A stretch of DNA of 64,000 nucleotides from Candidatus Doudnabacteria bacterium (GTDB lineage Bacteria > Patescibacteriota > Doudnabacteria > UBA920). The notes below the pieces were generated by a model. It was not told where the DNA came from. It saw nothing but the letters and a program-made list of their open reading frames with translations, and did no database searches. Numbering within the stretch: position 1 is the first letter of the stretch; each line of letters begins with the position of its first letter. The position numbers were made by a program, and so were the translations under genes. Positions 139-26,685 of the stretch are shown here, one piece after another. The stretch spans positions 93,210 to 157,209 of the forward strand of contig PLYC01000013.1 of assembly GCA_003151625.1 (NCBI GenBank), read 5' to 3'.

Positions 139-1701
139 ATGGTATCAAACAAATCTCCTTTAGTAAACAACTATTTCCTCTACGCCCGTAAATCCACTGA
201 CGTGGAAGACAAACAGGTTTTATCCATTGAAGCTCAATTGTCAGAATTACGTACATTGGCAAAGGGGCAGTCCCTAAACATTATTTGTGAGTTCGTGGAA
301 AAACAGTCGGCCAAATCTTTAGGTCGTCCTGTTTTTAACGATATGCTCGCACGGATTGGGAAAGGAGAAGCCCAAGGACTTGTCAGTTGGAAACTAGACA
401 GACTAGCCCGCAATCCAGTCGACGGCGGCCAGATAAGCTGGATGCTGCAGCGCGGAATACTCCAGCATATCCAAACCAATGAGCGGAGCTATTACTCAAC
501 TGACAATGTTCTTCTTATGAGCGTGGAGTTCGGCATGGCCAACCAGTTTATCTTGGATTTGAGCAGTAACACAAAACGTGGTCTTAGGGAAAAAGTCAGA
601 CGCGGTGACTTCCCCGCTCTGGCTCCTATCGGCTATCTTAATGACCCAAGAACTAAGACAGTTGTTATTAACAGAAAAAAAGCCGAGCTCATTAAAAGGG
701 CTTTTGAGATTTATTCTCAAAACAATTCCCGGCTGGAAGATATATCTACCTTTTTAGCCGAACATGGCCATGTTTCAAGCTATGGAAAGCCGTTGAGCCG
801 TGATCAAATTACAATGTTCCTTTCTAACCCTTTTTATTATGGTCACTTTCGATATATGGGCGAAGTCTATGAAGGACGGCATAAGCCGATTGTTACTAAA
901 CAGCTTTGGGATAAGGTGCAGGTAGTTTTAAAAGACCGCGGTCGTGTTCATAAGAGCCCGTATAACGATCCAAGGCCATTCTGCGGTCTCCTTCGCTGTG
1001 GCCAGTGTGGTTGTGCTATCACGGGCGAGAACAAGACAAAATATCAAAAAAATGGCACAACCCACCATTATGTGTATTACCGCTGTACAAGGAAGAAGGG
1101 TATTTGCCGGGAACTTGCCGTTCGTGACGAAGTTTTGGATTTGCAACTTACAAACATTCTTAAGGATTTTGTTATGCCACCGGATTGGGCCGAAACTTTG
1201 GAAAAAATGGCCGACAAACACAGTCAGCAGTCAGCACATTCCACTGCGGGGTTTGTTCAAGACTTGCGGTCAAAGGTTTTGGATATTGACCGCAAGCTCC
1301 AAAGGCTTCGAGACATCTACCTTGACCAGGATATTGAACGGGATGAATACCTAAAAGACAAGAATACCTTGATGTCCGAAAAGAAGTCTTTGGAGGGGCA
1401 GATAGCCCGTTTTGAGCAAAACCAGAATGCTTGGCTCGCACCTCTCAAAAATTGGCTGAAAGACGCAGAAACATTGGGCGAAATAACGCTTTCGCCCGAA
1501 CTGCACCCCAAAAAACTCTTTGCCCAAAAAATCTTCGGCTCGCACCTGTTCCTTCAAAATCAAAAAGTTGTTTTCACCCCACAAAAACAATGGGCGGCCG
1601 TTAAGGCCGCCCGTGCAAAAGTGGGGAAAGTCCCCTTGAGTTGTATAGTGGAGCCCACTATCGGATTTGAACCGATCACCTGCTCCTTACCATTAGGGTA
1701 A
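139..1701 (+). CDS. large serine recombinase (resolvase/invertase N-domain + recombinase domain + zinc ribbon)
   Basis: N-terminal YARKSTDVEDKQVLSIEAQ, a catalytic Ser-recombinase-like motif. Cys cluster CGQCGCAI...YRCTRKKGICR. 520 aa. The C-terminal 18 aa are encoded by the att/tRNA-derived repeat. Confidence 0.85.
   Translation: MVSNKSPLVNNYFLYARKSTDVEDKQVLSIEAQLSELRTLAKGQSLNIICEFVEKQSAKSLGRPVFNDMLARIGKGEAQGLVSWKLDRLARNPVDGGQISWMLQRGILQHIQTNERSYYSTDNVLLMSVEFGMANQFILDLSSNTKRGLREKVRRGDFPALAPIGYLNDPRTKTVVINRKKAELIKRAFEIYSQNNSRLEDISTFLAEHGHVSSYGKPLSRDQITMFLSNPFYYGHFRYMGEVYEGRHKPIVTKQLWDKVQVVLKDRGRVHKSPYNDPRPFCGLLRCGQCGCAITGENKTKYQKNGTTHHYVYYRCTRKKGICRELAVRDEVLDLQLTNILKDFVMPPDWAETLEKMADKHSQQSAHSTAGFVQDLRSKVLDIDRKLQRLRDIYLDQDIERDEYLKDKNTLMSEKKSLEGQIARFEQNQNAWLAPLKNWLKDAETLGEITLSPELHPKKLFAQKIFGSHLFLQNQKVVFTPQKQWAAVKAARAKVGKVPLSCIVEPTIGFEPITCSLPLG
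1647..1688. repeat. 42-bp direct repeat (left copy), identical to the 3' portion (anticodon loop to CCA) of the minus-strand tRNA-Thr at 26196-26237; putative att site
   Basis: Exact match agtggagcccactatcggatttgaaccgatcacctgctcctt at both positions. The reverse complement contains T-arm GGTTCAAATCC, the acceptor 3' strand and CCA. Confidence 0.85.
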
Positions 1702-1884: not shown

Positions 1885-2835
1885 CTAAATTAAATTTTCC
1901 ATATTGGCCAAAGACTCCACGTCGGGCCGCAAGGTATGGGTTGGCAGACAGCGCAGATAGACTTCCGTCATGCGCAAATCCGTATGCCCAAGTAACTGCT
2001 TAAGCGCGGCCAAACTTCCTCCGTTCGCCAAAAAGTTTACGGAGAATGTATGCCGGTATTGGTGAACATGAAATTTCACGCCCGAACCCTCAATCACTTT
2101 GTTTACAAAATGTTTGAAGCCGTCAAAACTTAGGCGTTGGTCCCGGCTGTTGGACACAAACAGGTACGGATTTTTATAGTCTTTTTCTTTACGGGCTTTT
2201 AGGTAATCAACTAATAATTTATACGCGGCCGAATTTATGGGAATAAAGCGATCCCTCCTGGACTTGGAAGTTTCCCCCCGCACATGGAGTTCGCGTTTTT
2301 CCAAATTCAAATCAAGCACCTTAAGTTGTATTAATTCCCCTCTCCTAACGCCGGTGTTAAGCAGGGTGCCAATAAGAGCCATACTCCTTTTTTGTATGAA
2401 TGGGCTATGCCAATCAATGTTAAGACTTACGGCTAGCCAAATCCGTTCCAGTTGTTGCTTGTTCAGGAATTTTCTGTCGCTGTAAATAATCCGAGGGTAG
2501 CGCATATGCTTAAATGGATTATCGGCCAGGTATTTATTTTGTACCAGCCAATCAAAAAAACTATTTAATTTTGACCGGTATGTACCAATGGTGCTAATCC
2601 TGACGCCATTCCTTATTTCCCCTTTTCCGACAACTCTGTCGCGCTGTTCCAGGCGTTTGAAGAATTCGTTTAGAGTTTTGATAGTTAGCGTGTTTAAATC
2701 TACCCCAGGCATAAGCTTTTGGAACAATTCAAACGTCGCCACGTATCCTCTAATTGTGGCCGGTGAGCGCCGGGTTGAATACCGGCGCTCGTTCACAAAC
2801 TCCTGGTGGAGTTCGGTTAAATCTCTATTCTTCAT
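1885..2835 (-). CDS. tyrosine recombinase/integrase (XerC/D-phage integrase family)
   Basis: C-terminal HQYRHTFSVNFLANGGSLAALKQLLGHTDLRMTEVYL (R..H..R/H..Y catalytic box). 316 aa. Confidence 0.85.
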   Translation of the reverse strand: MKNRDLTELHQEFVNERRYSTRRSPATIRGYVATFELFQKLMPGVDLNTLTIKTLNEFFKRLEQRDRVVGKGEIRNGVRISTIGTYRSKLNSFFDWLVQNKYLADNPFKHMRYPRIIYSDRKFLNKQQLERIWLAVSLNIDWHSPFIQKRSMALIGTLLNTGVRRGELIQLKVLDLNLEKRELHVRGETSKSRRDRFIPINSAAYKLLVDYLKARKEKDYKNPYLFVSNSRDQRLSFDGFKHFVNKVIEGSGVKFHVHQYRHTFSVNFLANGGSLAALKQLLGHTDLRMTEVYLRCLPTHTLRPDVESLANMENLI

Positions 2836-3808
2836 TTGGATCTCCTTCGGGTAGGCTTGCTACTTTAGCCTCTATAACTTCCGGTTCGGCTTCCTCCGGT
2901 TCGTTTAGCCATCTGGCGACATGCCTTTTGACGCTCCTAAGGTTTAGTAATACCCTGGCAATGTTAATTGCGCCTATATCTGCCGGGTTATAGTTTTGCA
3001 GATGGGTTATAAGCTTTCGGGAGGCATCGCTGATTTTTTCCGCTGGTTCCATGGCGGCACTAATGGCGTCACTAACTGGCGTGGGCGAGTAGTTGGGAAT
3101 AATTTTTGACATCTGGGCATTAACCGCAAATTCGTCTAAGCCCGTGTAATCAACATTCATTATTTCCACGCCTTGGTCCGGGTATTGCACCAACGCTCTT
3201 TTAACCGCCATCGCGCTTTCTTTGGACTGGAACTCTTCGGCAATTATTTTTTCTTCCATCTCTTCCTTAAAGTCTTCCGGGATGTCTTTTAAGGCGCGGG
3301 CGTAGCTAGAGGGTATACCTTTTTCGGTTATGGCTTTTTTCATAACAGGAGAAAGATCAAGTAGACTTAATTTCTCATGCACATAGCTTTCGGACTTACC
3401 TACAGCGTGGGCAAGTTCAGTAATGCCTTTGTCATTGTGACCACCACTCCCTTTTTTTGCCTTGGCAGGAGTGATTAATGAAAGCATCTGATGTAGTGCT
3501 TTGGCTATATCCATATCGGGCATGGAATTTTGGATCAAGTTTTCTATAACCTGTCTTTGAAACCGGGCGCTGGCGTTTTCTGGATTAACTTCGCGGCAGG
3601 GTACAGTTTTTAATCCTGCTTTTTTGGCTCCTTCGTAACGGACGTGACCGGTGACAATGACAAAATTATTGTCAATTTCTATGGGATTAATAATCCCTTG
3701 AGCCGCAATACTCCTGGCCATATCAGCGACCGCCGCAGGGTCAATCTTGGAACGCGGCTGGTTTGGATCGGGTTTAATTTTCCCAATCTGTACTTCTTTG
3801 ATGTTCAT
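2825..3808 (-). CDS. ParB-like nuclease (ParB N-terminal/Srx) domain protein
   Basis: GHVRYEGAKKAGLKTVPC resembles the ParB box GxRRxxAA..G..xVP. Overlaps the integrase gene by 11 nt (operon). Confidence 0.65.
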   Translation of the reverse strand: MNIKEVQIGKIKPDPNQPRSKIDPAAVADMARSIAAQGIINPIEIDNNFVIVTGHVRYEGAKKAGLKTVPCREVNPENASARFQRQVIENLIQNSMPDMDIAKALHQMLSLITPAKAKKGSGGHNDKGITELAHAVGKSESYVHEKLSLLDLSPVMKKAITEKGIPSSYARALKDIPEDFKEEMEEKIIAEEFQSKESAMAVKRALVQYPDQGVEIMNVDYTGLDEFAVNAQMSKIIPNYSPTPVSDAISAAMEPAEKISDASRKLITHLQNYNPADIGAINIARVLLNLRSVKRHVARWLNEPEEAEPEVIEAKVASLPEGDPNEE

Positions 3809-8773: not shown

Positions 8774-8929
8774 TTATAAATCTAAATCATCAACATCAAT
8801 CCCCAAATTTTCCATCCGCTCTAAAGCCTCGTCAGCATCGCCATTGTTAATCTGCTCGGCCAGTTCTTCCTTTAGCCCGTCTTCGTCCACTTCCATTCTT
8901 ATTTCGTCCTCTAAATCTTCAAGTGGCAT
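8774..8929 (-). CDS. small acidic protein (51 aa)
   Basis: MPLEDLEDEIRMEVDEDGLKEELAEQINNGDADEALERMENLGIDVDDLDL. A truncated paralog of its 5' end lies at 11962-12009. Confidence 0.35.
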   Translation of the reverse strand: MPLEDLEDEIRMEVDEDGLKEELAEQINNGDADEALERMENLGIDVDDLDL

Positions 8930-8948
8930 AATTGCGTATGAGCAAATC

Positions 8949-9962: not shown

Positions 9963-10157
9963 TTAAAATTTTTTAGCTTTTAGTCTATTATTGGCAAAAT
10001 GCAAAGTAAAAGCCGAACCTGACGGCCGGGAAATTCCAAGCCGCGTGTCCATATAAAAACAGCGCGGACAGTCTAAGAACGTGCCAATCTTGCCCCGGCT
10101 TGGCTTAAAGAGCTTGTCGGTCGCTTGATCGAATAAATAGTTTCTTTTGCTTGGCAT
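9963..10157 (-). pseudogene. truncated paralog of the N-terminus of the Cas4-like nuclease at 15434-16177
   Basis: MPSKRNYLFDQATDKLFKPSRGKIGTFLDCPRCFYMDTRLGISRPSGSAFTL vs MAYKRSNLYEPEADKPFKLSRSKIDMFLDCPRCFYMDRRLGISRPSGPAFTL. ~85% DNA identity over ~150 bp. Confidence 0.6.
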
Positions 10158-10158
10158 A

Positions 10159-10806
10159 TTAGGATGCCAATAATTTTGTTACCCAATCGTTGAAATGTGG
10201 GCAATTATTTCTAATTTCCTGCAAACCGGTTCTGGAAGCTATTAGGCTGCCAAAAAGTGGCTTTCTATAGTTTGGGAAAAGTTTTATAAGTCTTTTGCTT
10301 GGATGAGTTTCCGGACCTTGGTTTATTTCCTCGGGAGTTTTAAAGGCATCTCTTATATTTTGCACATCCTGTTTTTTATTCCGATCCAAAGTATCGGAAA
10401 TAACTTCTGGTACTGAAAAAAGCAGGCCTTCAAACTCGTGAAGTTGCAAATAAGGAATGAAGCGTTCATTATTGATGTCGTTAGCAAAAGCCTGTTCCGC
10501 CGCTTTAACTTTATCGTAGCAAGAACCTTCATTTTTCCAATTTGGAAAGTCGGCAGGCAGGCCATAAAAATCCATCATCGTGGTTACCGCGGTAACATTT
10601 GAGTCCCTGAATAATTTTTTTGCATCGCGCTTTATGGCTCCATACGAACTTACGCCGCCCTTAAAATTTGGACTATTTTTAAGTATTTTTGTATTAATTA
10701 TGGTTGGAATTAAAAACAGACCCTGCTCCTGGAAGGTAGGGTTTAAAATATCTTTTACGAACCGTTCCTCAGTTTGTCCTTCGACTAAGATAAAAATTCT
10801 TTTCAT
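10159..10806 (-). CDS. DUF4276-like protein (partner of AAA_21 ATPase; possibly Toprim/OLD-like)
   Basis: N-terminal MKRIFILVEGQTEERFVKDIL, a characteristic DUF4276 start. 8-nt gap to the ATPase gene. Confidence 0.55.
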   Translation of the reverse strand: MKRIFILVEGQTEERFVKDILNPTFQEQGLFLIPTIINTKILKNSPNFKGGVSSYGAIKRDAKKLFRDSNVTAVTTMMDFYGLPADFPNWKNEGSCYDKVKAAEQAFANDINNERFIPYLQLHEFEGLLFSVPEVISDTLDRNKKQDVQNIRDAFKTPEEINQGPETHPSKRLIKLFPNYRKPLFGSLIASRTGLQEIRNNCPHFNDWVTKLLAS

Positions 10807-10813
10807 AAGTCAG

Positions 10814-11911
10814 TTATGGCCTGCCGCCAATAATATTTTTTTCCCACATATCTCCCAGTCCATAATCTTCAAGCCAAGAACCGAGTTCGTTAGAAGTGAG
10901 TCTTCGAAAAGAAGACTGTCCGTCGCTTCTGTCCACCACAATAATAGATTCGGGTTTTAGCTGATTTATCAAAGTTACGGATTGGGTTGAAACAATAACC
11001 TGTGTTCTGGTCGCGGCGCTTTGCAAAAGATTGGCAAGCAAATTTATTGCCGCGGGATGCAAACCTAATTCAGGTTCATCAAGCAAAATTGTGGTCGGCA
11101 ATTTTTCCGCCGGTTGTAATAATAAAGTTGCCAGGCATATAAAACGCAATGTGCCGTCAGACAATGAAGCTGCATTAAAATAGCTGTCAGAATTTTTGTG
11201 CTGCCATTCCAACTGAATACTGTCCGGTTTTAAGGGCGATGTTCTTAATACGAAAGAGTTAAAAAACGGAGCAATTAATTTAACGGTGTCAGTTATATTT
11301 TTAAAATCATAAGGATATTTTTTTTCCAATAAATACAAATAAGCCGCTAAATTTGAAGCGTCCGGTTTAAAAGAAGCGTTGTCATTTATTGGCCCGGTTT
11401 TTTTTAGTAAAGCTGTGTCGCTGGTATCATGGAAATGATACAGTCTCCAACTTCTTATGCTGGCCAAAGTGCTGGCAGAAACATTTCCCGCTTCTGCCGC
11501 GAGCCCCGTTTCCTTACGGTCGGGAGAGAGTGTATTAAATTCAAACGGTTTGGTGTAATTAGGTCCTAAATAAGAACCCCCTTCTTCTTCAAAAAATAAA
11601 GAATCATCAGCCGTAGGAACCAACTTTAGCCAGTAGGAATTGGGACCAAAATCAACTTTAACTTCCAAGGCGTGAGTAGTTTTTGAACCAAAATAAAGAA
11701 GCGTGTTGGCGCCTCCAGATTTTCTGATAAGGTTTTGCATGCGGCCTTCGGCCATTTCTCCCAAAAATTTGAAGAGTGAAATAAAGTTTGATTTTCCCGC
11801 GCCATTGGAACCAATCATTACATTTAAATCGCCCAATTTAAAATTTTCCAACGACTTGATGGATTTATAGCCTTTTATTGTAATATCAGTAACCTTATTT
11901 TGGTATACCAT
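10814..11911 (-). CDS. ABC-type AAA_21/SMC-like ATPase
   Basis: Walker A GSNGAGKSN, Walker B/D-loop LLDEPELGLHP, and VIVSTQS. Confidence 0.8.
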   Translation of the reverse strand: MVYQNKVTDITIKGYKSIKSLENFKLGDLNVMIGSNGAGKSNFISLFKFLGEMAEGRMQNLIRKSGGANTLLYFGSKTTHALEVKVDFGPNSYWLKLVPTADDSLFFEEEGGSYLGPNYTKPFEFNTLSPDRKETGLAAEAGNVSASTLASIRSWRLYHFHDTSDTALLKKTGPINDNASFKPDASNLAAYLYLLEKKYPYDFKNITDTVKLIAPFFNSFVLRTSPLKPDSIQLEWQHKNSDSYFNAASLSDGTLRFICLATLLLQPAEKLPTTILLDEPELGLHPAAINLLANLLQSAATRTQVIVSTQSVTLINQLKPESIIVVDRSDGQSSFRRLTSNELGSWLEDYGLGDMWEKNIIGGRP

Positions 11912-12214
11912 AATGCTTATATTATATCATAATTTTGACTATTTCATAGGCCAACTAGAAATCACTTTGACTCACCCTTTATTTCGTCCTCTAAATCTTC
12001 AAGCGGCATAGGTTTTAACTATTTGTTCTATCTTCTCCGGTTGTGCTTATTCCCAAGACTAAACAAAGCCCAAACGACAGAAAGCAGGCTTAAGAAAATT
12101 GCCAGTCCTTTGTGCCCGGTTTTAAAGAGTGCGTATATTAAGCAACAAAATGCTACAAATAGTATGAAGTCTAGCATGGGAGTTTAGTTATAATTTTTAT
12201 TAATAAATATAGAT

Positions 12215-12561: not shown

Positions 12562-12873
12562 TTAATTTGGCAGCCTACCTTCTTTTTCTCTGATTAGATA
12601 TGTTTCTGACTTTAAACAACGGTTTATAATACCTTCCATATGCCAGTAGGTGTAACCGTTATAGTCAAAATATACCTGCTTTGTTTGATAAAAATGGGAT
12701 TCGTAACCGAAGGTGTCGATGTGATGCGCGAGTGCCAGGAACAAATCGTTATCAACCCGCTCCTGGACAATATACTCGTGAGGCCAGGTTTTTGCGTACG
12801 TGACTGCAAAAATCCACTTTGAATTGTCTATAAATTGTTTTAACTTTTCAGAAAGTTTACCATTCTTGGTCAT
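12562..12873 (-). CDS. hypothetical protein
   Basis: 103 aa. 4-nt overlap with the upstream gene. Confidence 0.45.
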   Translation of the reverse strand: MTKNGKLSEKLKQFIDNSKWIFAVTYAKTWPHEYIVQERVDNDLFLALAHHIDTFGYESHFYQTKQVYFDYNGYTYWHMEGIINRCLKSETYLIREKEGRLPN

Positions 12874-13979
12874 TCCGTCGCCTCCAAAGATTTTTTAATC
12901 CATAAACAGACTTCAAAAAATTCACGCCTGGCGTCTTCATTGGCGATAACCCGGAGAGGCAACTTTAGGCCGTTGTAGCCGTCAACATTATCCACATGTA
13001 CCGTGGCACCTTTGATTGAGCTAAGCCGTTTTAATATTTCGGAACGTTTTACCGGGTTATCAAAAGGGTATGGGCTTTTATTTCCCTGGTGGGGAGCATT
13101 CCAAGAAACATTCCCATCTCCGGTAACCGATAAAGGATAAAAACCTTTTTTACCCTCGGGATAATAACACAAGAAAAAACCGCCGCGCTGGCTCGTGGTC
13201 CATTCAATTTCTATACCATTGTCGTTTGCCCAATCAATGATCTTTTGTGCCGCTATCACTTCTTCTGCGCCAATTTCTTTCAAACGCTCTTTAAATATAT
13301 CCCAGTCCCATAATTTCTTATCACGAGTTGTTGTCTTCATGTCCTTTTTGACCTCGGCTCCAAATATTCTCGGAATAATTATCTCATACGTTTCGTGTTT
13401 ATAATACTCAAGCTCAACAGCATATATATCAAACTGGCTGTTTTGGTTAACGTAAAGTATTAAGTCCTTAAGTCTGGCATCAAGACTGTCCATCAATATG
13501 ACAAAATGAAGAGCACCGTCACTCAAATTATCGCGGACGGAATTCAGCAATTGGGCTATTTCTTCGTTAGATAGGCCAAAGTGTTCCTGAAGTTTTTGAT
13601 TCAGCGAAATCTTGAATGTTTTTTGAACATTCGCCTCAAGTATTGAGGAAAATTCACTAAAATCATTTGAGTGCTTCCAAAGAGCAGCACCATAATCCAG
13701 TGATTGAGCTACTACGGTTCGCTTATCGGGATTTTTGTACAGTTTAGTTTCAATAATATATATTTCTCCCTCTCTATCAACGCCGATTGCGTCAATTGGG
13801 CCGCTGTGCGTCGGGAACTCCCTAGCCAGGATAAGAAGCCGTATATCTTCTTTGATGTCATATAATGGGACACTGTCGGGATTATCGTAAATATATTTCT
13901 GAAGATAATCTTCTTTATCAAAAGTTGATTTTTCTATTTTTTTAGCATTTTTGCCGTTTTTAGAAATAATAATCGCCAT
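12870..13979 (-). CDS. hypothetical protein, possible PD-(D/E)xK nuclease fold
   Basis: GPIDAIGVDREGEIYIIETKLYK, a D..E.K-like arrangement. 369 aa. Confidence 0.4.
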   Translation of the reverse strand: MAIIISKNGKNAKKIEKSTFDKEDYLQKYIYDNPDSVPLYDIKEDIRLLILAREFPTHSGPIDAIGVDREGEIYIIETKLYKNPDKRTVVAQSLDYGAALWKHSNDFSEFSSILEANVQKTFKISLNQKLQEHFGLSNEEIAQLLNSVRDNLSDGALHFVILMDSLDARLKDLILYVNQNSQFDIYAVELEYYKHETYEIIIPRIFGAEVKKDMKTTTRDKKLWDWDIFKERLKEIGAEEVIAAQKIIDWANDNGIEIEWTTSQRGGFFLCYYPEGKKGFYPLSVTGDGNVSWNAPHQGNKSPYPFDNPVKRSEILKRLSSIKGATVHVDNVDGYNGLKLPLRVIANEDARREFFEVCLWIKKSLEATE

Positions 13980-14060
13980 AGGTTATATGTGTTAATTTCG
14001 CTTATACTATTTGTAATCTGATTAAGGCTCTTTCAATTAGTTTAAATTTTTATAGTTAGC

Positions 14061-15419
14061 TTATTCAAGAAAATCAGCTATCTTTTCTTGATTTATGATT
14101 CCATTTGCAAGAAAAAGGTCTTCTAATTGCGAATGGTCAACGCCAGCATGTGAAAGTTTATGAGCAATGATATTAAGTAAATCATTTGCTTTCATTAAAA
14201 CTACAGGGCATCGTGTTTCCTTATAAATATCTTTTATGGAGCTATCCAACGATTGGTTGTCAGAAAAGTCTGATGAGACAATCAGAAATGAAAATTTTTT
14301 AATCCGCCTTTTTTGGAGCTCTTTTTGATATTTTTTTATATATTCACTAATTTCTCTATCCCCAGTGCCAATAGAATATCCTTTTTCTCTAGCCTTTGCG
14401 TCATAAACAATGGCATAATAGTATTCAGAGTTTGCATCTGTCGAATAAGCGATGCCGTCTGGTTCTCTGCCTTTTCCTTGCCCGAGACTTTCCACTTCAT
14501 AACCCAAAATCCCAAATGCATAACCCAATTTTATTTCAAAAGCCCTTTCCGGTTTGAGATTCATTTTTTTTGACCATTCTGTTTCTTTATTTAAGGCAAG
14601 TTCTTTAAGGTCACTGATAATAGGCGGCACCCATTCTCTGACCAATTGATTAGGTTTTTGTTTAATGGGTGATTCCTTTTTGGTTTCTGCCTCTATTATT
14701 TCATCCGTTCTTATTGGCTCTTTAAATCCACCCCAAGGAGCTTGGTCATCTTCCGCATCAACTTTCCATAAATCTTTCACGCCAGACGAATATAGAAAAG
14801 ATGTTAATGTCCGTGGTGAGTATTTTATACCTAACTTTCTAAAACCAGCAATTAAATCATCGTTTGATTGGACAATCTTTTCCCCTATAGGGTCTTTTTC
14901 AAAATCCACGTGGCTTTCAAAGCCAAAGTATTCCGTGGCCTTTTTACGGTCTCTCAGCGAGATAACGCTGACACTGGAAGATGGGTTATAGGCAAAAATC
15001 ATAGCACTGACCGCGTTGCCGCGTGGTCCGGTTAAGTTGTTGTGGTTACCTTCATTTAACTTATATAGTTCATCAATTAATTTAGCTTTTTCTTCACCCA
15101 CGGTTTTGAATATTTGATCTAGTTGTTTATGCAGTTCTGGCTTATTTTTAATTTCATTAAACATCCGACGCCAAGCCCCTTGTGTGATCATAGTCCTCGC
15201 TACTGCTTCACTTTCTCTGGTATTGCCCTTCCCAGCCCTGTCCAATATTCTGATTATTCCATCCAATTCTAAATCATCCAAATCCTCTTTGGAATTGGTC
15301 ATAATCTTACCATTCCAAAAGTCCCTAAACTCCCTGCTTTGTGCTACCCATAAAGCGTCCTTAGACTCGGAGTCATAATTTTTTATAAACTCGTTAAATA
15401 ATTCTATGATTTTGTCCAT
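14061..15419 (-). CDS. hypothetical protein (C-terminal possible PD-(D/E)xK-like motif)
   Basis: EPDGIAYS...YYYAIVYDAKAR. 452 aa. No confident family. Confidence 0.4.
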   Translation of the reverse strand: MDKIIELFNEFIKNYDSESKDALWVAQSREFRDFWNGKIMTNSKEDLDDLELDGIIRILDRAGKGNTRESEAVARTMITQGAWRRMFNEIKNKPELHKQLDQIFKTVGEEKAKLIDELYKLNEGNHNNLTGPRGNAVSAMIFAYNPSSSVSVISLRDRKKATEYFGFESHVDFEKDPIGEKIVQSNDDLIAGFRKLGIKYSPRTLTSFLYSSGVKDLWKVDAEDDQAPWGGFKEPIRTDEIIEAETKKESPIKQKPNQLVREWVPPIISDLKELALNKETEWSKKMNLKPERAFEIKLGYAFGILGYEVESLGQGKGREPDGIAYSTDANSEYYYAIVYDAKAREKGYSIGTGDREISEYIKKYQKELQKRRIKKFSFLIVSSDFSDNQSLDSSIKDIYKETRCPVVLMKANDLLNIIAHKLSHAGVDHSQLEDLFLANGIINQEKIADFLE

Positions 15420-15433
15420 TTTAGTATGCTTAA

Positions 15434-16177
15434 TTATGTAACTTCTACTAGCTGAGATTTTTTTCTATACTGGCAGAATTCGCATTCCGGGTTAGGAGCA
15501 GGGAGACTGGCTTGGTTTAAGCAATCGTGAATATTAAAAATTGTTTGCTCTACCCAGGAGTCCGAGCCGGTGTAAGGGATTAGTTTAGCGTCAAATTCCA
15601 ATACGCCATTAAAGCCTGCCCTGTCTTTCTTGCCGTTCACATAAAAAAAGTAACCGATGTTAGAAACTTTTAAACCATTTTGTCTTAACAGCCACTGGTA
15701 GACTTCCATTTGCCTGCGGTAGGAGTTATGCCACTTGGCATCCGTTAACTCTACCTCACCCTCTTTGCTGGTGGCCTTATAATCCACCACAATGTATTCT
15801 CCTTCCGAGTTTTTCCACAAATCATCAATGGCTCCAAAAATTAACATATTGGTTTTTTTGTGGAGGCACTGCACGCCGGTAAAATTATGCCGCCACTGGT
15901 CTAAAAGCTCATGAGCTACAGGCACAGCGTCCAGGCCGTAGGCTTCCATAAGCGGATGTTTGGTTCCATTGGCGCGGTAGACATCAAATTCTTTTTTCAA
16001 CAAAGCGTCCACGGCAACGTTCAAAGTAAAAGCCGGACCGGATGGTCGGGAAATTCCAAGCCGTCTGTCCATATAAAAACAGCGCGGGCAGTCTAAAAAC
16101 ATGTCAATCTTGCTCCGGCTTAGCTTAAAGGGCTTGTCGGCTTCGGGCTCGTATAGGTTGCTTCTTTTATAGGCCAT
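15434..16177 (-). CDS. Cas4-like/RecB-family PD-(D/E)xK nuclease with 4-Cys cluster
   Basis: N-terminal DCPRCFY, IVVDYKAT (D..K), C-terminal CEFCQY. 247 aa. Confidence 0.6.
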   Translation of the reverse strand: MAYKRSNLYEPEADKPFKLSRSKIDMFLDCPRCFYMDRRLGISRPSGPAFTLNVAVDALLKKEFDVYRANGTKHPLMEAYGLDAVPVAHELLDQWRHNFTGVQCLHKKTNMLIFGAIDDLWKNSEGEYIVVDYKATSKEGEVELTDAKWHNSYRRQMEVYQWLLRQNGLKVSNIGYFFYVNGKKDRAGFNGVLEFDAKLIPYTGSDSWVEQTIFNIHDCLNQASLPAPNPECEFCQYRKKSQLVEVT

Positions 16178-16185
16178 TTTAAAGT

Positions 16186-18771
16186 TTAATTTGAAAGATT
16201 TAATTTATCGCGTCTTTTCTCCAATGCTTTTTTGCCACCTTCCAAAATCTCAATAATTTCATCTCTGATTGCCGGGTTTTCAATAGCCCCTGATTCGTAA
16301 GTAAAGTTTGGATTTTTACCCGCAGTTTTATTTGAGACAACGACTTCCTCGCTGTCTCCGCAAACCACTAGATTTGCGTTATGGGATGCTATTATTATTT
16401 GCCGCTTTATTTTTTCGGCTTTTAGAAAGTCCACAATATGTTTTGAAATAGCTTTTGCATCCAAATCATCCTCTGGTTGATCCAGTAATACCGGGTAATT
16501 ATAATCGTCAAATTTAAAAATAAACTCTAATAAAGCTAGCATCTTTTCGCCATCGGACATATTGACAAACTCATCGCCATTTCGGCTTTTAATACTTTTC
16601 TGAAAGTCTACCTTAAACCTATTCCTAAATAATTCCATGAGCAAAATTTCTTCATTTTTTCCGGACTTCAAAATTAATTGACCTGTTAAAATACCCAGCG
16701 TTAGCTGTTTAAGAAGTAATGAGAATTCAATTTTTTTGTAGTCCCATTGCTCTGGCTCTCTTAGAAATGTATTTGCTTTTTCGTTTTTTGGATTTTCTTT
16801 AAAAGAAATAGAATTGTGGTAATTAATATTGTCTTCAATAAATTTTTTAAATGATTGCGTATCAAAACTAGTGGTAATGTCCACTTTTGAGAAAGCCAAG
16901 CTCCCCAGGTTTATGCTTAAACTTTTGAACTGCTCATTAAACTGGCTATACTTTTCTACAATTTTGCTAAGTCTGTCCGAGTAAGAGGCCCTTAACTTTA
17001 TAATTTCTTCGTCTGTTTCATTAATGGTTTTTAAAATTTCGGCTTTTTCTTGCAAGGTCTTTGTTAACATTAACAGCGCTTGATGTTTTTCTACCTTGGT
17101 TTGTAGAGGCTTTAACTCCGTGTCCAGTTCTTTAATTTTCTTTTTAACGTTTTCCTTTGAATTTACTAATTCCGTAATCTCTTTTTCAATAAAGTCCTTT
17201 TTAAAAACTTCGTCAGATTCTTTAAGTTTGGCCTCCATCTTTATTACATATTTTTGCGAAAATTCAAATTCCAAAATCTTGTCCGCTGAAATTACTTCTT
17301 CCTGCTTCAACATTTTAAAAGAAGCTAAGTCCTTGTCTATAATCTTAATTTCGCGTTCTTGCGCCGCCTTGTCAGAATTTATTTTTTTATAATTTTCAAG
17401 TTCCTTATTTGTGACTTCACTATTACTTTTCCTGGTCAAATTAAGGCTTGCCTCAATTTTCAAAATTTCTTTTTCCAAATCTTCCTTTTTCCCAAGTTTT
17501 TTTAATTTTTCTCCCTTTTCCCTGCCGTTATTCCTTATTGCTAGAAGTTCTCTGACAAGAGATGTTATAGACAATACGTTTTCGTCTTCAAATTTTTTGT
17601 AATTTTGTAGCGCATTTTTAAAGTTGTCTTTATTTTCAAAAAGATTTGACAAAAAGTTGTCAAAATTAACATTTTTTTCATACACCAAGTCCCCTAGGTA
17701 TTTTTGAGGAATAAAAAGAACTCCTTTATCTTCTGTTTCTTTTAAAGAACTAACTTTGCCATCTCTCCAAAATAGTTTGAAATTCTTTAACTGCAGGAAG
17801 TCGGCACCATCAACTCCTTTCAGCCTGCACTGAACTGGATCAATAGAAAAGGCAATATTTCTTAAAAGATTTGATTTCCCTGTGGCCCGACTCCCAATTA
17901 CTGAGTTTAAATTTTGATTAAAGTAAACTATTTGTTTACTACCGTCATGATTTGTGAATTCCGCTCTGTCAATAATACAATAATCGGATTTTTCCTCTGG
18001 TTTTAATTCTTGAATTTTAACCCTACATTCTGGTTCATAAATTATTTGTTTTAAACCTTCAAAAGTTGGATCGGCTTTTATCCAGCAATTTTGTTTAAGG
18101 GAGTATTTTTTGACATTATGGTTATCGGAACAAATAACCATTGGAAAAAAGCCAATCTTCTTAAAGACAGTATCCCTATAGTCGGCCTGGTCTTTCTCCT
18201 GCCCTAACTCAAAAATTTGCACTTCGCTCGCTATGTCTTTTTTCTCAGCCATTTTTACAGGCAGAGAGTTAGTAATTTTTTCTATGGAATTCGACTTCCT
18301 GCCCGCATGGATTGAGACAACGCCGCCGAGTCTTTTTATTAAGTTCGCAGTATCTTTTAAATCGCAGTAAATTTCGTTATCCTTTTGTCCTGATTGTCTT
18401 TGCGATGCAATCTTGGCTTGGGATTGTATTTCGTTCCAAATGTAATTTACATCCGAATTTTCCGGGAAAATGCCAATAAAGTGGACCGGCTCGCTCCCCC
18501 GGCTGTCTGAGCAAAATTCTATTCCTGGCAAAACAGTCAAATCATCACCGCCAGCCTTTTTTAATTTTTCAATAACCTGGGAGTCAATAATGTGATGATC
18601 GGTAATCGCAACAACTTTAATTTGTTGCTTTTTTAAGGCTTCAGCAATTTCCTCTGAAGTGTTGGCTTTATTGTCATGGTCGTAGGAGCTGGGAGTGTGA
18701 AAGTGTAGATCCCATTTTCTCCATTCGGAACCTCTAAAGTATTTTTGCATAGTTTTTATAGTAACGGCCAA
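16186..18771 (-). CDS. PHP-domain + SMC/ABC-like ATPase fusion protein (Ppl-like)
   Basis: N-terminal WDLHFHTPSSYDHD...AITDHH (PHP metal-binding motifs). Walker A GSRATGKSN, long coiled-coil, Walker B LLDQPEDDLD. 861 aa. Confidence 0.7.
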   Translation of the reverse strand: MAVTIKTMQKYFRGSEWRKWDLHFHTPSSYDHDNKANTSEEIAEALKKQQIKVVAITDHHIIDSQVIEKLKKAGGDDLTVLPGIEFCSDSRGSEPVHFIGIFPENSDVNYIWNEIQSQAKIASQRQSGQKDNEIYCDLKDTANLIKRLGGVVSIHAGRKSNSIEKITNSLPVKMAEKKDIASEVQIFELGQEKDQADYRDTVFKKIGFFPMVICSDNHNVKKYSLKQNCWIKADPTFEGLKQIIYEPECRVKIQELKPEEKSDYCIIDRAEFTNHDGSKQIVYFNQNLNSVIGSRATGKSNLLRNIAFSIDPVQCRLKGVDGADFLQLKNFKLFWRDGKVSSLKETEDKGVLFIPQKYLGDLVYEKNVNFDNFLSNLFENKDNFKNALQNYKKFEDENVLSITSLVRELLAIRNNGREKGEKLKKLGKKEDLEKEILKIEASLNLTRKSNSEVTNKELENYKKINSDKAAQEREIKIIDKDLASFKMLKQEEVISADKILEFEFSQKYVIKMEAKLKESDEVFKKDFIEKEITELVNSKENVKKKIKELDTELKPLQTKVEKHQALLMLTKTLQEKAEILKTINETDEEIIKLRASYSDRLSKIVEKYSQFNEQFKSLSINLGSLAFSKVDITTSFDTQSFKKFIEDNINYHNSISFKENPKNEKANTFLREPEQWDYKKIEFSLLLKQLTLGILTGQLILKSGKNEEILLMELFRNRFKVDFQKSIKSRNGDEFVNMSDGEKMLALLEFIFKFDDYNYPVLLDQPEDDLDAKAISKHIVDFLKAEKIKRQIIIASHNANLVVCGDSEEVVVSNKTAGKNPNFTYESGAIENPAIRDEIIEILEGGKKALEKRRDKLNLSN

Positions 18772-21700
18772 TTAGAAATAAGCTGATCAATTTCTTTCAT
18801 AATGCGGATGGTTTCGCGGAGGGAGGCGACGATTTTCATATAGTGCTTTAAGTCGTCCAAAGACAGGCTACGCTCGGCCTTTTTGCGATCCTTTAGCCAC
18901 TTCTCACAAACCTGATAGCCGCCAATCATAAACTCCCAAACTTCTTTTTCCACACCTTCAAAATACTGGCCGGGATTTACGTAAACTCGTCGGTCTTTAG
19001 CTGAATATTTAACCTCGGTAACTTTCCAGTCTTCCAAACTTTCCGGCTTCTCACCCCCAAGACTAATCCCCCATTTGTCCGAATCGTCAAAAATTGTCTT
19101 GGACTGATCAAACGGATTTTCTCCGAGCAAATGCAAATTTACTAACTCGTTACCTTTGGCAACTAATTTTTTAAACAGTTCTTTATTGGAAGTTAGCGGT
19201 AAGCGCGGAAAATCTATTTTCAACTGTTCGGCATACCTGATCCGGTAAGTCGGGCAATGAAAAATAGCATAAGTATAGTAAAACACATCTTCCGGTCCAA
19301 AAGTTTTTTCCAAATCACCTCGCCCATCGCTAATAAAGCTTATCCCAAGTTTTTGAGAACATTCCTTAGTAAATTTTTCGGAAAAATTTACTTTTTTGTT
19401 TAGTTTCCCAAAAAGATTAGATTGTGTTGAGTCGGAGTATAGGTATAGCGGAAAGATATAAGAGCCTATTGCTGAATCTAGATTATGCATATCACACAAT
19501 AATGATGTAACAAAAAAATGGTTATTTTTCTGATTCTGGATATTTCGATGTAGGGTCAGCCCTAAATTATTTTTATTAAGGAAATGTTTCATTATATCTT
19601 GTCTAGGCCAGTCTAACAATTCCTTGTTGTATATTAAATAACGGTTGTCAAAAGCTCTGAATTGAATTTTAATAATCTCATTATTATAATCTATCTTCTT
19701 TTTTCTCGCTTCTGATAAAAGCCATCCTCGCGTATCGCCCTTTAAATACTTACCTGATCTTTTCCCAGAAGAAAAAAATCTGACCCTAATAGTATCATCA
19801 CTATTATTTAAATTAAAAAAATAATCTAACTTTTTTAACAAATCTTTTCTTTCAAATCCATAAACAAGCTGATCCCTTGAAGATTGTATGCCTGTATTGC
19901 AAGAATCAAATACATCCTTTACAGAATTTATTTGGTTATAGTCATCTTCGTGATGGACTACTTTAAAAATGTAATGTGGAGCGTTTGGTTCAATTTCAGT
20001 CCACTCTGTATTATTAACTTCATGAGTTAAAAGGAACTCAAATTTATTTTCTTTTAGGCCAAAAAGTTCAGAATAAAAAATATTCTTTGCTATTTTTCTT
20101 TCGTTTTTGATAAAAAATGAAATTACAACACCTGTTTGAATTGGAAAAACATTTTCATCCTTTGTACCATCAGGCGCCTTTTCATTTTTGACCGAACTGC
20201 CATGTAAATTAAGAATATAAATTTCATCGAAATAATTCAATAAATTATAGCGCATTCCTCTAAAAGTTGGGTTATCCAGAAAATTGTGATTTGTTATAAA
20301 AGATAAAATTCCATGTCCTATATCTGCAATCTTCCATTGAGCAAAACGAATAAATTTTACATAATCATCTTGAAGCCAATGCTTTTTTTCTCCAAAATGT
20401 TTACCATCAATATATTTATAGTCCTCAATAAGTTTATTAATCCATTCTCCTTTATTAGCCGATACCCCGGAATATGGCGGGTTGCCGATTATAGCTAAAA
20501 TTGGCGCGTCTTTTTTGACTTTACGCGCGGCTTCGCTTTCTTCAGCGATTGAGGGAAAGGCTATAGAACCAAAATCAGTTGTAGCTTTGGCCTGTTTTTG
20601 GTAAGCGTTGGGATCATCAAGCGTATTTGCCAAATAAACTTTTAAGCGGTCTTTGTCGCCGTCGCCCTTTGCCATCTCAAAATCAAAACCCAAATCTTCT
20701 AAAAGCAAAGTAAGTTTTAAATGGGCAATGGCGTAAGGTGCGACTAAAAGTTCAAAGCCATAAAAATGTTTTAAAATGTGGTCAACAACTACCCTATTAA
20801 ATTCCTTAGTTACCATTTCTGGGCCCAAGGTGTTATTTTGCTTTTGAACTGCGGAGTGAATTTGCTGAATGGCGGACATTAAGAATGTGCCGGTGCCAGT
20901 GGCCGGGTCAAGTAAATGGACGCTTTCATCAGCCAAACCTTTTTCTTTGCCGAATTTTTCTTTTAAGATGAAATCTACACTACGGACAATGTAATCTACT
21001 ACCGGCTTTGGCGTGTAGTAGACACCTCGCGCTTCGCGTTCCTTAGGGTCGTATTCGTTCAAAAACGGCTCGTAGAAATGAATAACCGGGTCCTCGCCGA
21101 CTTTATGCTCTCGTAACTTTAACTCAATTTTAGCCATCTCGGCCGCGTTCAGCTGGTCTATTAGGGCGGTGGTGGCCTGGTGAATATTAGGAATAACTTG
21201 GGAGACTTTTTTAATCAAAGAATATAAGTCGGCCAAAATAGGAACGCTTGCTGGTAAATAATCCATTGCCGTGGTTAAGGTTAGAACATCGGACTTGCCG
21301 CGCTTGGTATGCTCCAAAGAGGCCAGGAATAAAGAATACGCCACAGTTTCGGCCACCATATTGGCAAACTGGTGCGGCTCTATATTTTGGATTAAAGTTT
21401 TCTCAAAAGTTTCTTTTAGCTTAACCAAGTCCGAAGTTTCGTCGGCATCCTTAAAGGCTTCTTCCACTTGATTAGACAAAAGCTTAGTCTTTTTTGCCAA
21501 GGCCAACGCCAGCTGTTTAGTGGTACGCGCTTCATAAGCTTTGCCGGAAAAGAATTGATGCAAGATGTCAATCAGGTTTTGCTCCTCGCCGGTGGTAAAA
21601 TTTGCAACATCAAAAATTATTTCTTTTATTTTTACCGGCTTGCCTTCGTCACCCCATTGCCAAAGCTGCCACTGTTTAAAATTGGTGAATAGAATATTTT

Positions 21701-22004
21701 CTAAAGCGTCCTTATATTTTTCAAACTGCTTATTGAATTTAGGACTGTCTAAGGAATCTTCCGGTAGTTTTACTTCCACCCAGCCAACCAGCCGGTCTTT
21801 TCGCCGTACAGTAACGTCAGGAAAGCCCACGCCACCGGCAACGGCTTTAGCGCTCTCTTCGGCCGTGGCAAATATGTCTTTGGACTTTTCCAATTCGGCG
21901 AGCTCCTGCAGGAAGTTAGTTAAAGCCGGGTAAAAGGATCGTTCGGTGCCGTGGTCTTTAATCCTTAAAAAACTTTGTTGGAATTTTTCTATTGGTATGT
22001 TCAT
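18756..22004 (-). CDS. N6-adenine DNA methyltransferase, Type IIG/IIL(MmeI)-like or PglX-like; possible N-terminal PD-ExK endonuclease segment
   Basis: Motif I LLDPATGTGTFL and motif IV IIGNPPYSG. N-terminal FPDVTV..GWVEVK. 1082 aa. 16-nt overlap with the downstream gene. Confidence 0.8.
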   Translation of the reverse strand: MNIPIEKFQQSFLRIKDHGTERSFYPALTNFLQELAELEKSKDIFATAEESAKAVAGGVGFPDVTVRRKDRLVGWVEVKLPEDSLDSPKFNKQFEKYKDALENILFTNFKQWQLWQWGDEGKPVKIKEIIFDVANFTTGEEQNLIDILHQFFSGKAYEARTTKQLALALAKKTKLLSNQVEEAFKDADETSDLVKLKETFEKTLIQNIEPHQFANMVAETVAYSLFLASLEHTKRGKSDVLTLTTAMDYLPASVPILADLYSLIKKVSQVIPNIHQATTALIDQLNAAEMAKIELKLREHKVGEDPVIHFYEPFLNEYDPKEREARGVYYTPKPVVDYIVRSVDFILKEKFGKEKGLADESVHLLDPATGTGTFLMSAIQQIHSAVQKQNNTLGPEMVTKEFNRVVVDHILKHFYGFELLVAPYAIAHLKLTLLLEDLGFDFEMAKGDGDKDRLKVYLANTLDDPNAYQKQAKATTDFGSIAFPSIAEESEAARKVKKDAPILAIIGNPPYSGVSANKGEWINKLIEDYKYIDGKHFGEKKHWLQDDYVKFIRFAQWKIADIGHGILSFITNHNFLDNPTFRGMRYNLLNYFDEIYILNLHGSSVKNEKAPDGTKDENVFPIQTGVVISFFIKNERKIAKNIFYSELFGLKENKFEFLLTHEVNNTEWTEIEPNAPHYIFKVVHHEDDYNQINSVKDVFDSCNTGIQSSRDQLVYGFERKDLLKKLDYFFNLNNSDDTIRVRFFSSGKRSGKYLKGDTRGWLLSEARKKKIDYNNEIIKIQFRAFDNRYLIYNKELLDWPRQDIMKHFLNKNNLGLTLHRNIQNQKNNHFFVTSLLCDMHNLDSAIGSYIFPLYLYSDSTQSNLFGKLNKKVNFSEKFTKECSQKLGISFISDGRGDLEKTFGPEDVFYYTYAIFHCPTYRIRYAEQLKIDFPRLPLTSNKELFKKLVAKGNELVNLHLLGENPFDQSKTIFDDSDKWGISLGGEKPESLEDWKVTEVKYSAKDRRVYVNPGQYFEGVEKEVWEFMIGGYQVCEKWLKDRKKAERSLSLDDLKHYMKIVASLRETIRIMKEIDQLISNWPLL

Positions 22005-25252: not shown

Positions 25253-26158
25253 TTATAGATTATTCAGCGGGTGTTTCGTGATTTGTGCCCGCAGATGTTC
25301 AGCCGTCGCGCTTAAATAAATTGTCGTGGTCTTGATGTCCGAATGGCCCATCATTTTGCTTAGGCTGTAAATGTCGCACCCACCTTCCAACATTAAAACC
25401 GCAAACGAATGTCTAAGTTTGTGAATTCCAAAGTTTATTTTGCTGGCTTTTTTTATAATCTCCACTAAGTTGCGCAGGCCCATTTGGGTAAAACCCATAT
25501 TCCGGTTTAACGAAGCAAAGAATTCCGGGCAGGTTTTATGTATTCTCTTTCTTTCAACCACGTATCTTTTTAAAGTTTCCGCCAGGGCAAAACAGATTGG
25601 AATCATTCTGTCTTTGTTGCCTTTCCCCTGCCGGACAAAGATTGTAAGGTTTTCCAAGTCTACATCCGCGAATTTTAAGTTTAGCAATTCGCCTTTGCGG
25701 AGCCCGGCCATTATAAATGTGGCAAAAATTGCGTGGTTGCGGTAACGCAGGTATTTATATTGGTACGGGTAATTGTAGACCACTTCCAGCAGTTTCATTG
25801 TCTGCTGTTTTGTCAGCTTGGGTGGCAGCCGCTTTTCTAACTTTGGAATTTCTATTTTCTCCGCGTAATTTTCAGGCATGTATTTCTCTTTGACGCACCA
25901 GCGGAAAAACACAACCAGACTTTTAATAAAGTTAATGTAGGTATTTGTACTCCAATTTCGTTCTGTGCGGCCATAGAAAAACAGCTTCCGGATATTCTCT
26001 TCGTTTATCTGCTCAAACTCGGTGACATTGCAATATTTGCAGTAATAGTTAATAACAAACCTATACCGTCTGATTGTGGCTTTGGCGTATCCTCGTATAA
26101 ACGAGGAATAGTCATAGAACTTTAGGGCCGCTAATTGTATGTCCATATATACCTCCAA
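25253..26158 (-). CDS. tyrosine recombinase/integrase adjacent to tRNA
   Basis: HKLRHSFAVLMLEGGCDIYSLSKMMGHSDIKTTTIYL catalytic box. 301 aa. ~40 bp from the tRNA 3' end. Confidence 0.85.
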   Translation of the reverse strand: MEVYMDIQLAALKFYDYSSFIRGYAKATIRRYRFVINYYCKYCNVTEFEQINEENIRKLFFYGRTERNWSTNTYINFIKSLVVFFRWCVKEKYMPENYAEKIEIPKLEKRLPPKLTKQQTMKLLEVVYNYPYQYKYLRYRNHAIFATFIMAGLRKGELLNLKFADVDLENLTIFVRQGKGNKDRMIPICFALAETLKRYVVERKRIHKTCPEFFASLNRNMGFTQMGLRNLVEIIKKASKINFGIHKLRHSFAVLMLEGGCDIYSLSKMMGHSDIKTTTIYLSATAEHLRAQITKHPLNNL

Positions 26159-26195: not shown

Positions 26196-26237
26196 AGTGG
26201 AGCCCACTATCGGATTTGAACCGATCACCTGCTCCTT
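26196..26237. repeat. 42-bp direct repeat (right copy) = 3' exon of tRNA-Thr; putative att site
   Basis: Identical to 1647-1688. Confidence 0.85.
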
Positions 26238-26460
26238 CACTTCTACCTCAATTTCGTAAATCTTATATGAGGGTTAGACTGTATATTTTTCCCGGCGCCG
26301 GGAAACCCTTGTCAGTCGTTCGGGCGATTGCTCGCCACGGTCTTGACCCGTGAGGGCTATTAACCGTTATTCGGGATTCGCTTTGAAATTACTTTCAGAG
26401 TGGGCATGAACATAAGCTGTTCTCACCATGGAGCTGCTCTACCAAATGAGCTAAGTGGGC
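26198..26460 (-). tRNA. tRNA-Thr(GGU), interrupted by a ~186-nt intervening sequence in the anticodon loop (putative intron)
   Basis: Minus strand: GCCCACT-TA-GCTC-ATTTGGTA-GAGC-A-GCTCC-ATGGTGA..[~186 nt]..GGAGC-AGGTG-ATCGG-TTCAAAT-CCGAT-AGTGGGC-T-CCA. All four stems are perfectly paired. Confidence 0.55.
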
Positions 26461-26602
26461 TTACAACGGCATGAGATTTTGAATGAACTTTTTTTGAGCC
26501 CGCGACCATCTCCCTGCGGGAGGTGCTCATGGGCTTTTCTCTTTTTGTGATTTTGCTCTTATATTAGAGCAAATCCCTGATAACAAGGTAGACTGCCTTT
26601 TT

Positions 26603-26638
26603 ACCATGGAGCTGCTCTACCAAATGAGCTAAGTGGGC
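26603..26638 (-). repeat. second tandem copy of the tRNA-Thr 5' half (acceptor, D-arm, anticodon stem 5' strand + GGT AA)
   Basis: 36-nt identity to 26427-26460. No T-arm or 3' half follows it. Confidence 0.55.
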
Positions 26639-26685
26639 ACAAAGTTATTGGATTTTTTAAATACCACTTCGCACGATATATTTTT

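Follow-up and report, generated by a model that had tools for sequence, protein, structure and literature searches.

The question raised by this locus is whether a large adenine methyltransferase gene and the helicase gene directly upstream of it together form a restriction system and, if so, of which type. Both genes lie in a 64,000-nt stretch of a Candidatus Doudnabacteria genome (GenBank assembly GCA_003151625.1, contig PLYC01000013.1, positions 93,210 to 157,209 of the forward strand), referred to here as the window, within which all positions are counted. A previous reading of this DNA, made with no database searches (the sequence-only reading), had described a 1082-amino-acid (aa) methyltransferase with a possible N-terminal PD-ExK nuclease segment and a separate SNF2 helicase, and had suggested that the two genes have the domain complement of a split Type ISP restriction enzyme. 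Our analysis points to a DrdV-like enzyme that would methylate one strand of an asymmetric site and cleave unmodified DNA via site-bound assemblies, with a dedicated SNF2 ATPase at its side, a reading to which we give a probability of roughly 0.7. Taken by itself the enzyme is unremarkable, belonging to a known class with solved structures, and its minimal pairing with SNF2 has been noticed in passing and is uncharacterised. The interest of the locus is this fixed partnership with a RapA-like SNF2 motor, a phage-defence variant of two genes. Coordinates of all features are collected in Table 1.

The 1082-aa open reading frame (ORF) at 18756-22004 was recovered on the minus strand, which the sequence-only reading had left unstated. 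It is not a chance ORF, since a protein search returned more than 7000 homologs at E ≤ 1e-10 and Pfam PF18135 (Type_ISP_C) matched residues 697-1071 with E 8.6e-88 (295 bits). Further Pfam matches were N6_Mtase, MmeI_Mtase and Eco57I; these four families, all methylase or specificity-domain models, were the only ones in the chain. Pfam detected no ATPase or helicase domain in it, and residues 136-300 were modelled as a helical connector. The PADLOC models for Type IIG restriction-methylase fusions (REase_MTase_IIG) matched over the whole length (E 1e-229). Among PDB sequences the best match was DrdV (1e-44), followed by LlaGI (1e-37) and LlaBIII (2e-36). The methylase could be aligned residue by residue with DrdV 282-762, including the S-adenosylmethionine (SAM) and NPPY motifs, both of which sit where they had been placed from sequence (residues 364-375 and 508-511).

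Conservation was analysed across 41 homologs, 51-76% identical to the query, in which the SAM and NPPY motifs are invariant. Mean pairwise identity fell to 33% in residues 656-900, compared with 64-69% in the flanking domains, and was 69% in the C-terminal module (aa 901-1082), which aligned to DrdV 842-901 and LlaGI 1233-1345. Judged by this pattern, residues 656-900 are a diversifying recognition domain, of which low identity is the signature, and the long C-terminal region that had been proposed to recognise the target indeed carries a specificity module of the Type ISP/DrdV type. A search for a shufflon, an inverted recognition-domain cassette of the sort reported in Prevotella and Bacteroides, found none; there were two 19-nt inverted pairs only, which form no cassette.

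An AlphaFold model of residues 1-300 (predicted local distance difference test, pLDDT, 87; predicted template-modelling score, pTM, 0.84; nuclease part pLDDT about 90) showed the alpha-alpha-beta-beta-beta-alpha-beta topology of PD-(D/E)XK nucleases followed by an all-helical region, with D63 starting the second strand and E77/K79 ending the third, which is the canonical placement. Searched against the PDB with Foldseek, the model gave confident matches to DrdV chains only (E 2e-6, probability 1.0, ~300 columns), with a template-modelling (TM) score of 0.74 to the nuclease-only DrdV chain 7lvv_C. The second match, to the Type IIG enzyme BpuSI, was marginal (E 0.04) and lower matches were noise. 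The putative active-site residues E21, D63, E77, K79, Q93 and Y97 are invariant in the 41 homologs, as part of a full invariant set (E21, Y25, G60, P62, D63, G74, E77, K79, Q93, F94 and Y97) that includes a QxxxY motif, and nuclease-domain identity among homologs averages ~52%. The same nuclease residues are kept in more distant homologs, among them ones without SNF2. The DrdV active site consists of E25, D64, E79, K81 and K94 (10.1101/2021.01.06.425610), and in a collinear alignment D63, E77 and K79 correspond to DrdV D64, E79 and K81. An N-terminal profile matched 1760 cluster representatives at E ≤ 0.001; among its best 150 matches the domain is always N-terminal, and the full-length proteins are ~1000-1100 aa long. 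As far as computation can show, the N-terminal nuclease domain is real and under selection, in line with the PD-ExK core read from the sequence, and it would be expected to act as a nuclease. The sequence-only reading had considered that the N-terminus might take a non-nuclease fold, or that the best homologs might be BREX PglX proteins; the fold is that of a nuclease, and PglX models matched no more than marginally, at 27 bits (PADLOC) and 20 bits (NCBIfam), and over the methylase core alone.

The helicase partner is encoded by a separate gene that ends in TAA, and the enzyme gene begins with its ATG at the very next nucleotide, with zero spacer. A scan for promoters and terminators gave the counts expected by chance. 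In Pfam the protein matched SNF2-rel_dom (2.5e-32) and Helicase_C (3e-20). Its best family matches were DrmD and BrxH models, including NCBIfam DISARM_DrmD_b (NF038318, 531 bits, below the cutoff of 950) and PADLOC DrmD (1.8e-157). SNF2 motifs I (DEVGLGKT), II (DEAH), III and VI (QRIGRCHRYGQ) are invariant in 33 homologs. Because E. coli RapA is the closest solved relative in sequence (E 3e-33) as well as in fold (E 4.5e-21, full-length alignment), the partner is assigned as a RapA-like Swi2/Snf2 motor and not as an HsdR or Type ISP motor. The earlier view of a separate SNF2 rather than HsdR-type helicase gene was therefore correct, and this gene is conserved beside that of the enzyme. For residues 740-1036 the model is confident and shows a beta domain together with a long coiled coil; they had no sequence match in the PDB.

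We examined the conservation of the pairing in a locus scan with one genome per species, which yielded 28 loci with a relative of the enzyme. The assessable set comprised the 16 loci with at least 46% enzyme identity and usable upstream DNA, two of which are near-identical (L007/L008) and one of which holds the SNF2 3' end only (L020). The SNF2 gene lies directly upstream on the same strand in 15/16, with gaps of at most ~45 nt; the single exception is L013. Loci with at least 46% identity span lineages of the Patescibacteria group, Thermodesulfobacteriota, 'Deltaproteobacteria', Bacteroidetes and Bacillota. At 37-44% identity, no SNF2 gene was found next to the enzyme (0/11 loci). Neighbour-joining placed the SNF2-linked enzymes in a single clade, just outside which L013 and L027 branch, and identities of the enzyme and of SNF2 across loci are correlated (Spearman 0.81, p = 5e-4). 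The longest-contig value was also equal in more than 30 top matches of two independent protein searches. No neighbour other than SNF2 is conserved across the related loci. SNF2 and the enzyme are a co-inherited two-gene module.

Two observations concern the mobility of this module. The L007/L008 locus, with identical tblastn values, is assigned to both a Bacteroidetes and a Bacillota metagenome-assembled genome, which reflects either a very recent transfer or a binning error. Large serine recombinases occur near the enzyme gene in six loci (L002, L003, L011, L013, which has no SNF2 gene, L015 and L016), the scanned members having the composition Resolvase + Recombinase + Zn_ribbon_recom. These nearby recombinases suggest that the SNF2-enzyme module is often carried on integrative elements.

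Full-length homologs of the SNF2 protein (33-42% identity) also adjoin other adenine-methylase restriction genes. On seven inspected plasmids (L031-L037) the SNF2 homolog is followed by Type III-like Mod and Res, and at metagenome loci L038, L040 and L041 it occurs with Eco57I-type methylase pairs or a 945-aa MmeI/Eco57I-type protein. A helix-turn-helix (HTH) gene is frequently found upstream of such SNF2 homologs, and in P0318 the HTH is fused. A variable gene (Abi, AIPR, DUF262, AAA + DUF4276, or DUF3800) is often inserted in these operons. Type IIL/IIG-like and Type III-like systems are known to mark asymmetric sites on one strand. The distribution suggests that this SNF2 family is a widespread, uncharacterised accessory to restriction systems whose classes mark asymmetric sites. 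DISARM class 1 and ARMADA are recognised to share a pairing of a BrxHII/RapA-like helicase with a PglX-like methylase, both genes being described as BREX-like, and ARMADA requires the Walker motifs of its helicase ArmA (10.1101/2025.09.15.676423). We found no paper characterising a SNF2 + Type IIL pair.

All testable features of a Type IIL/IIG enzyme are present: the nuclease, a gamma-class methylase on the same chain, a variable recognition domain and no helicase domain. DrdV itself (Type IIL, Deinococcus wulumuqiensis, PDB 7LO5/7LVV) is likewise a single chain of ~1000-1100 aa with the same domain order, namely N-terminal PD-ExK nuclease, helical connector, gamma-class adenine methylase and recognition domain. 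In DrdV the 'helical connector region' forms the dimer interface, complexes at the site are tight and long-lived, and cleavage occurs when several site-bound molecules assemble (10.1101/2021.01.06.425610). The two differ in that N-terminal identity is low (17-25%), and in that the DrdV paper describes no helicase partner (10.1101/2021.01.06.425610), whereas here the SNF2 gene is fixed upstream. A full-length homolog is also encoded on lp56 of Borrelia burgdorferi (34% identity, 98% of the query covered). Both bbq67, the gene on lp56, and its paralog bbe02 have two functions in vivo, restricting incoming DNA and producing strand-specific N6-methyladenine (m6A) at short, asymmetric motifs (CGRKA and GNAAYG) (10.1101/375352). 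Unlike the genes studied here, those for BBE02 and BBQ67 stand alone, and the lp56 locus has no SNF2 neighbour.

NCBI labels these homologs 'type ISP restriction/modification enzyme', a name that suits the C-terminal domain and not the architecture. The locus resembles LlaGI and LlaBIII, both enzymes of Type ISP, in its homologous methylase and C-terminal specificity module, and its two genes jointly encode a nuclease, a motor, a methylase and a recognition domain. A Type ISP enzyme, however, carries its SF2 motor internally, on the same single polypeptide as a nuclease of the Mrr type (typically PD-QxK) (PMC3874165), whereas here the motor is a separate Swi2/Snf2 protein and a PD...ExK nuclease of the DrdV type sits on the methylase chain. 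Two defining properties of Type ISP, a motor within the single chain and an Mrr-type nuclease, are lacking here, while the Type_ISP_C module is present. The 'split Type ISP' of the sequence-only reading holds as a description of the domain complement over two genes and fails as an account of ancestry. By descent, the enzyme is a complete DrdV-type protein of Type IIL that recruited a DrmD/BrxHII/RapA-like helicase as its neighbour.

A SNF2/RapA-like helicase gene beside a large adenine methylase gene is also a feature of DISARM class 1 (DrmD-DrmMI), ARMADA (ArmA-ArmB) and BREX (BrxHII-PglX), whose methylases modify asymmetric sites, and the top-scoring models for the SNF2 protein are those of DrmD. 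Additional core genes (DrmABC, YprA-like ArmC, PglZ and others) are required in those systems and absent here. In the island that carries the locus, all minus-strand ORFs between the SNF2 gene and position 7246 were scanned, along with most of the remaining ORFs of 120 aa or more, and among them no DrmA (helicase), DrmB (DUF1998), DrmC (PLD), PglZ, BrxC or YprA-like gene was found; a PADLOC call of DISARM class 1 needs all five components. Since core genes are missing, membership of DISARM, ARMADA and BREX was rejected. Unlike these systems, the SNF2-enzyme pair could be self-sufficient through its intact nuclease. A published parallel is Pin17FIII, a Type IIG enzyme of Prevotella intermedia 17F (1117 aa by coordinates), for which a methylome study noted a SNF2/RAD54 helicase upstream (PMC5608340). 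The likeness to this two-gene arrangement is drawn from the published description and not from sequence; there, an inverted partial gene lies downstream, and no such long inverted repeat exists here.

Given the domain identities, the conserved catalytic residues and the conserved gene pairing, we infer a joint action of the two proteins through methylase, nuclease and ATPase activities. The variable recognition domain would bind a short asymmetric site, where the gamma-class methylase would flip out one adenine and methylate one strand, marking self DNA. On unmodified foreign DNA, the connector-tethered PD-ExK nuclease would cut once several site-bound molecules join, as for DrdV. The most likely role of the RapA-like SNF2 ATPase would be to spend ATP in moving along or remodelling DNA and the DNA-bound enzyme, so that site-bound enzymes may communicate, or be recycled, more efficiently. 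Functionally, the result would resemble what the built-in motor does in Type ISP enzymes.

Several results weigh against this reading. The profile of residues 1-300 had no match among PDB sequences, and Pfam gave the N-terminus a sub-threshold VRR_NUC match only, with no MmeI_N or Mrr family. Fold and conservation, and not domain-level sequence homology, are thus what support the nuclease call, and the link to DrdV depends on the fold and a weak collinear alignment, whose N-terminal stretch scores 7.6 bits. The profile and structure search that had been proposed for this region thus ended in a fold match to the DrdV nuclease, though with neither of these Pfam families. Neither the 150 best N-terminal-profile matches nor the 120 best SNF2 matches included a fusion of SNF2 with the enzyme. 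A SNF2 partner has been neither reported nor detected for DrdV, BBE02, BBQ67 and the relatives at ~40% identity, so the enzyme class needs no motor to restrict, and in E. coli Pin17FIII alone produces m6A at GGYGAB with no helicase present (PMC5608340). Members of this SNF2 family also occur beside Type III-like systems equipped with a Res helicase of their own, which disfavours the simple idea that SNF2 supplies a missing translocase. Because relatives manage without a motor and because of these helicase-bearing systems, site-to-site communication by the motor, as in Type ISP, is a tentative proposal, with roughly the same likelihood as an accessory or recycling role. It is less likely than not that the pair is a minimal self-sufficient system of ATP-dependent restriction, in which SNF2 would physically couple to the nuclease-proficient Type IIL enzyme and license cleavage by one-dimensional inter-site communication, converging on the Type ISP solution; the pair would then also be a nuclease-retaining relative of the helicase-PglX-like pair of BREX, DISARM class 1 and ARMADA.

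The same observations bear on a rival with a substantial minority of the probability, namely that the Type IIL enzyme is autonomous and SNF2 an accessory with no part in cleavage, which might strip or recycle enzyme that persists at its site, remove proteins bound to DNA or anti-restriction factors of phages, or tilt the balance between methylation and cleavage on host DNA. It is favoured by the retention of the same nuclease residues in relatives without SNF2, by the structural proximity to RapA, which is described as recycling RNA polymerase, by the tight, long-lived site complexes of DrdV, by methylation in Prevotella without the upstream SNF2 and by the occurrence of the family beside Res helicases. 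Computation gives no distinction between this rival and the preferred DrdV-like reading; adjacency, abutting ORFs and co-divergence suit either. If the pair were instead of the BREX/DISARM/ARMADA kind, with a methylase that marks self and a defence in which the N-terminal nuclease is vestigial or regulatory, the DrmD and BrxH matches of SNF2 and the known modules of helicase and PglX-like methylase would be accounted for. The invariance of the nuclease residues in a domain that averages such modest identity, the core genes not found in the island and the marginal PglX matches, together with the lack of a DrmMI model among the 13 PADLOC families matched by the enzyme at E ≤ 0.01, make it improbable. 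Least probable of all, to the point where we attach little weight to it, is incidental adjacency of two independent defence genes travelling together in defence islands. The island is full of unrelated defence genes and the genes downstream of the pair differ between loci, as such an origin would have it, but order, strand and near-zero spacing are the same in 15/16 loci across phyla while all other neighbours vary, the SNF2-linked enzymes are monophyletic and the divergence of the two proteins is correlated.

BREX, DISARM class 1 and ARMADA all have a pair of a helicase and an adenine methylase at their core, and how these systems work is only partly understood; the helicase role is hard to isolate there because several more proteins are required. 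Here a pair of this kind has an intact nuclease and is accompanied by no further conserved gene, so motor-dependent cleavage, methylation or recycling could be assayed with two proteins. If SNF2 does license cleavage, the pair would be a two-gene model for the BREX/DISARM/ARMADA helicases with DNA cleavage as a direct read-out. The presence of the SNF2 family beside both Type IIL/IIG-like and Type III-like systems suggests a general, uncharacterised accessory role.

Table 1. Positions, strands and basis of assignment of the features described in the window.
Feature	Position	Strand	Basis or remark
Predicted bifunctional restriction-modification gene, 1082 aa, DrdV-like Type IIL/IIG with Type_ISP_C-type C-terminus	18756..22004	minus	ATG-to-stop ORF
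SNF2 (RapA-like Swi2/Snf2) ATPase gene, 1036 aa	22005..25115	minus	Separate ORF, conserved partner
SNF2 protein parts: ATPase core, ~aa 26-650; C-terminal beta domain + long coiled coil, ~aa 740-1036			
N-terminal PD-(D/E)XK nuclease domain, aa 1-135	21600..22004	minus	AlphaFold (AF2) model, Foldseek, invariant residues
Helical connector, aa 136-300	21105..21599	minus	All-helical in AF2 model; Foldseek co-alignment with the N-terminal 300 residues of DrdV
Gamma-class N6-adenine methyltransferase domain, aa 301-655	20040..21104	minus	Pfam, DrdV alignment
Hypervariable target-recognition region, aa 656-900	19305..20039	minus	Drop in pairwise identity; inside PF18135
Conserved C-terminal module, aa 901-1082, common to DrdV, LlaGI and LlaBIII	18756..19304	minus	PF18135 and alignments
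Motif I LLDPATGTGTFL, residues 364-375	20880-20915	minus	Checked coordinates
Motif IV NPPY, residues 508-511	20472-20483	minus	Checked coordinates
PD...ExK stretch PDVTVRRKDRLVGWVEVK, residues 62-79 (PD 62-63, E77-V-K79)	21768-21821	minus	Checked coordinates
TrlF-family PHP + SMC-like ATPase	ATG 5 nt past enzyme stop	minus	NF045780, 451 bits, above cutoff
Cas4-like PD-(D/E)XK nuclease	15434-16177	minus	
FokI-cleavage-domain protein, 452 aa	14061-15419	minus	
PDC-S11/NucS-like protein	12870-13979	minus	
PADLOC candidate HEC-01 pair	10159-11911	minus	HEC-01A AAA_21 ATPase (E 3e-142), HEC-01B (E 5e-82)
Tyrosine integrases at both island ends	25253-26158 and 1885-2835		
ParB-like gene	2825-3808		

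The whole defence cluster is carried inside an island of ~24.5 kb, bounded by a 42-nt direct repeat, AAGGAGCAGGTGATCGGTTCAAATCCGATAGTGGGCTCCACT, at 1649-1690 and 26196-26240 (minus strand). This repeat is the 3' part of a tRNA-like gene, and its 25-mer core is expected 0 times by chance. A serine recombinase gene at 139-1701 (+) lies just outside the distal island repeat and overlaps it. At the other end, the tRNA-Thr(GGT)-like gene beside the integrase (26196-26640, minus) looks split, with its 5' half present in two 95%-identical copies (26638-26598 and 26460-26420) and, ~190 nt farther along, its 3' part (26232-26196). ARAGORN reported no tRNA in the whole 64-kb window and Rfam no family at the tRNA-like gene, which may hold an intron or be disrupted.

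Downstream of the enzyme, putative defence genes are tightly packed on the minus strand over 12870-18771, with tiny gaps. The TrlF, Cas4-like and FokI-like genes were considered as parts of the system and rejected because they are not conserved beside the SNF2-enzyme pair, and the PDC-S11/NucS-like gene is likewise not conserved there; other loci have Shedu, SMC-like ATPases, DUF6602 or DUF3800 downstream of the pair instead. A 169-nt direct repeat with 80% identity occurs at 9993-10161 and 16013-16181. One copy is the Cas4-like gene's 5' coding end; the other is intergenic, between an LD-carboxypeptidase-like gene and HEC-01B, and may be the remnant of a rearrangement. A second direct repeat (32 nt, 97%) is located at 8899-8930 and 11979-12010.

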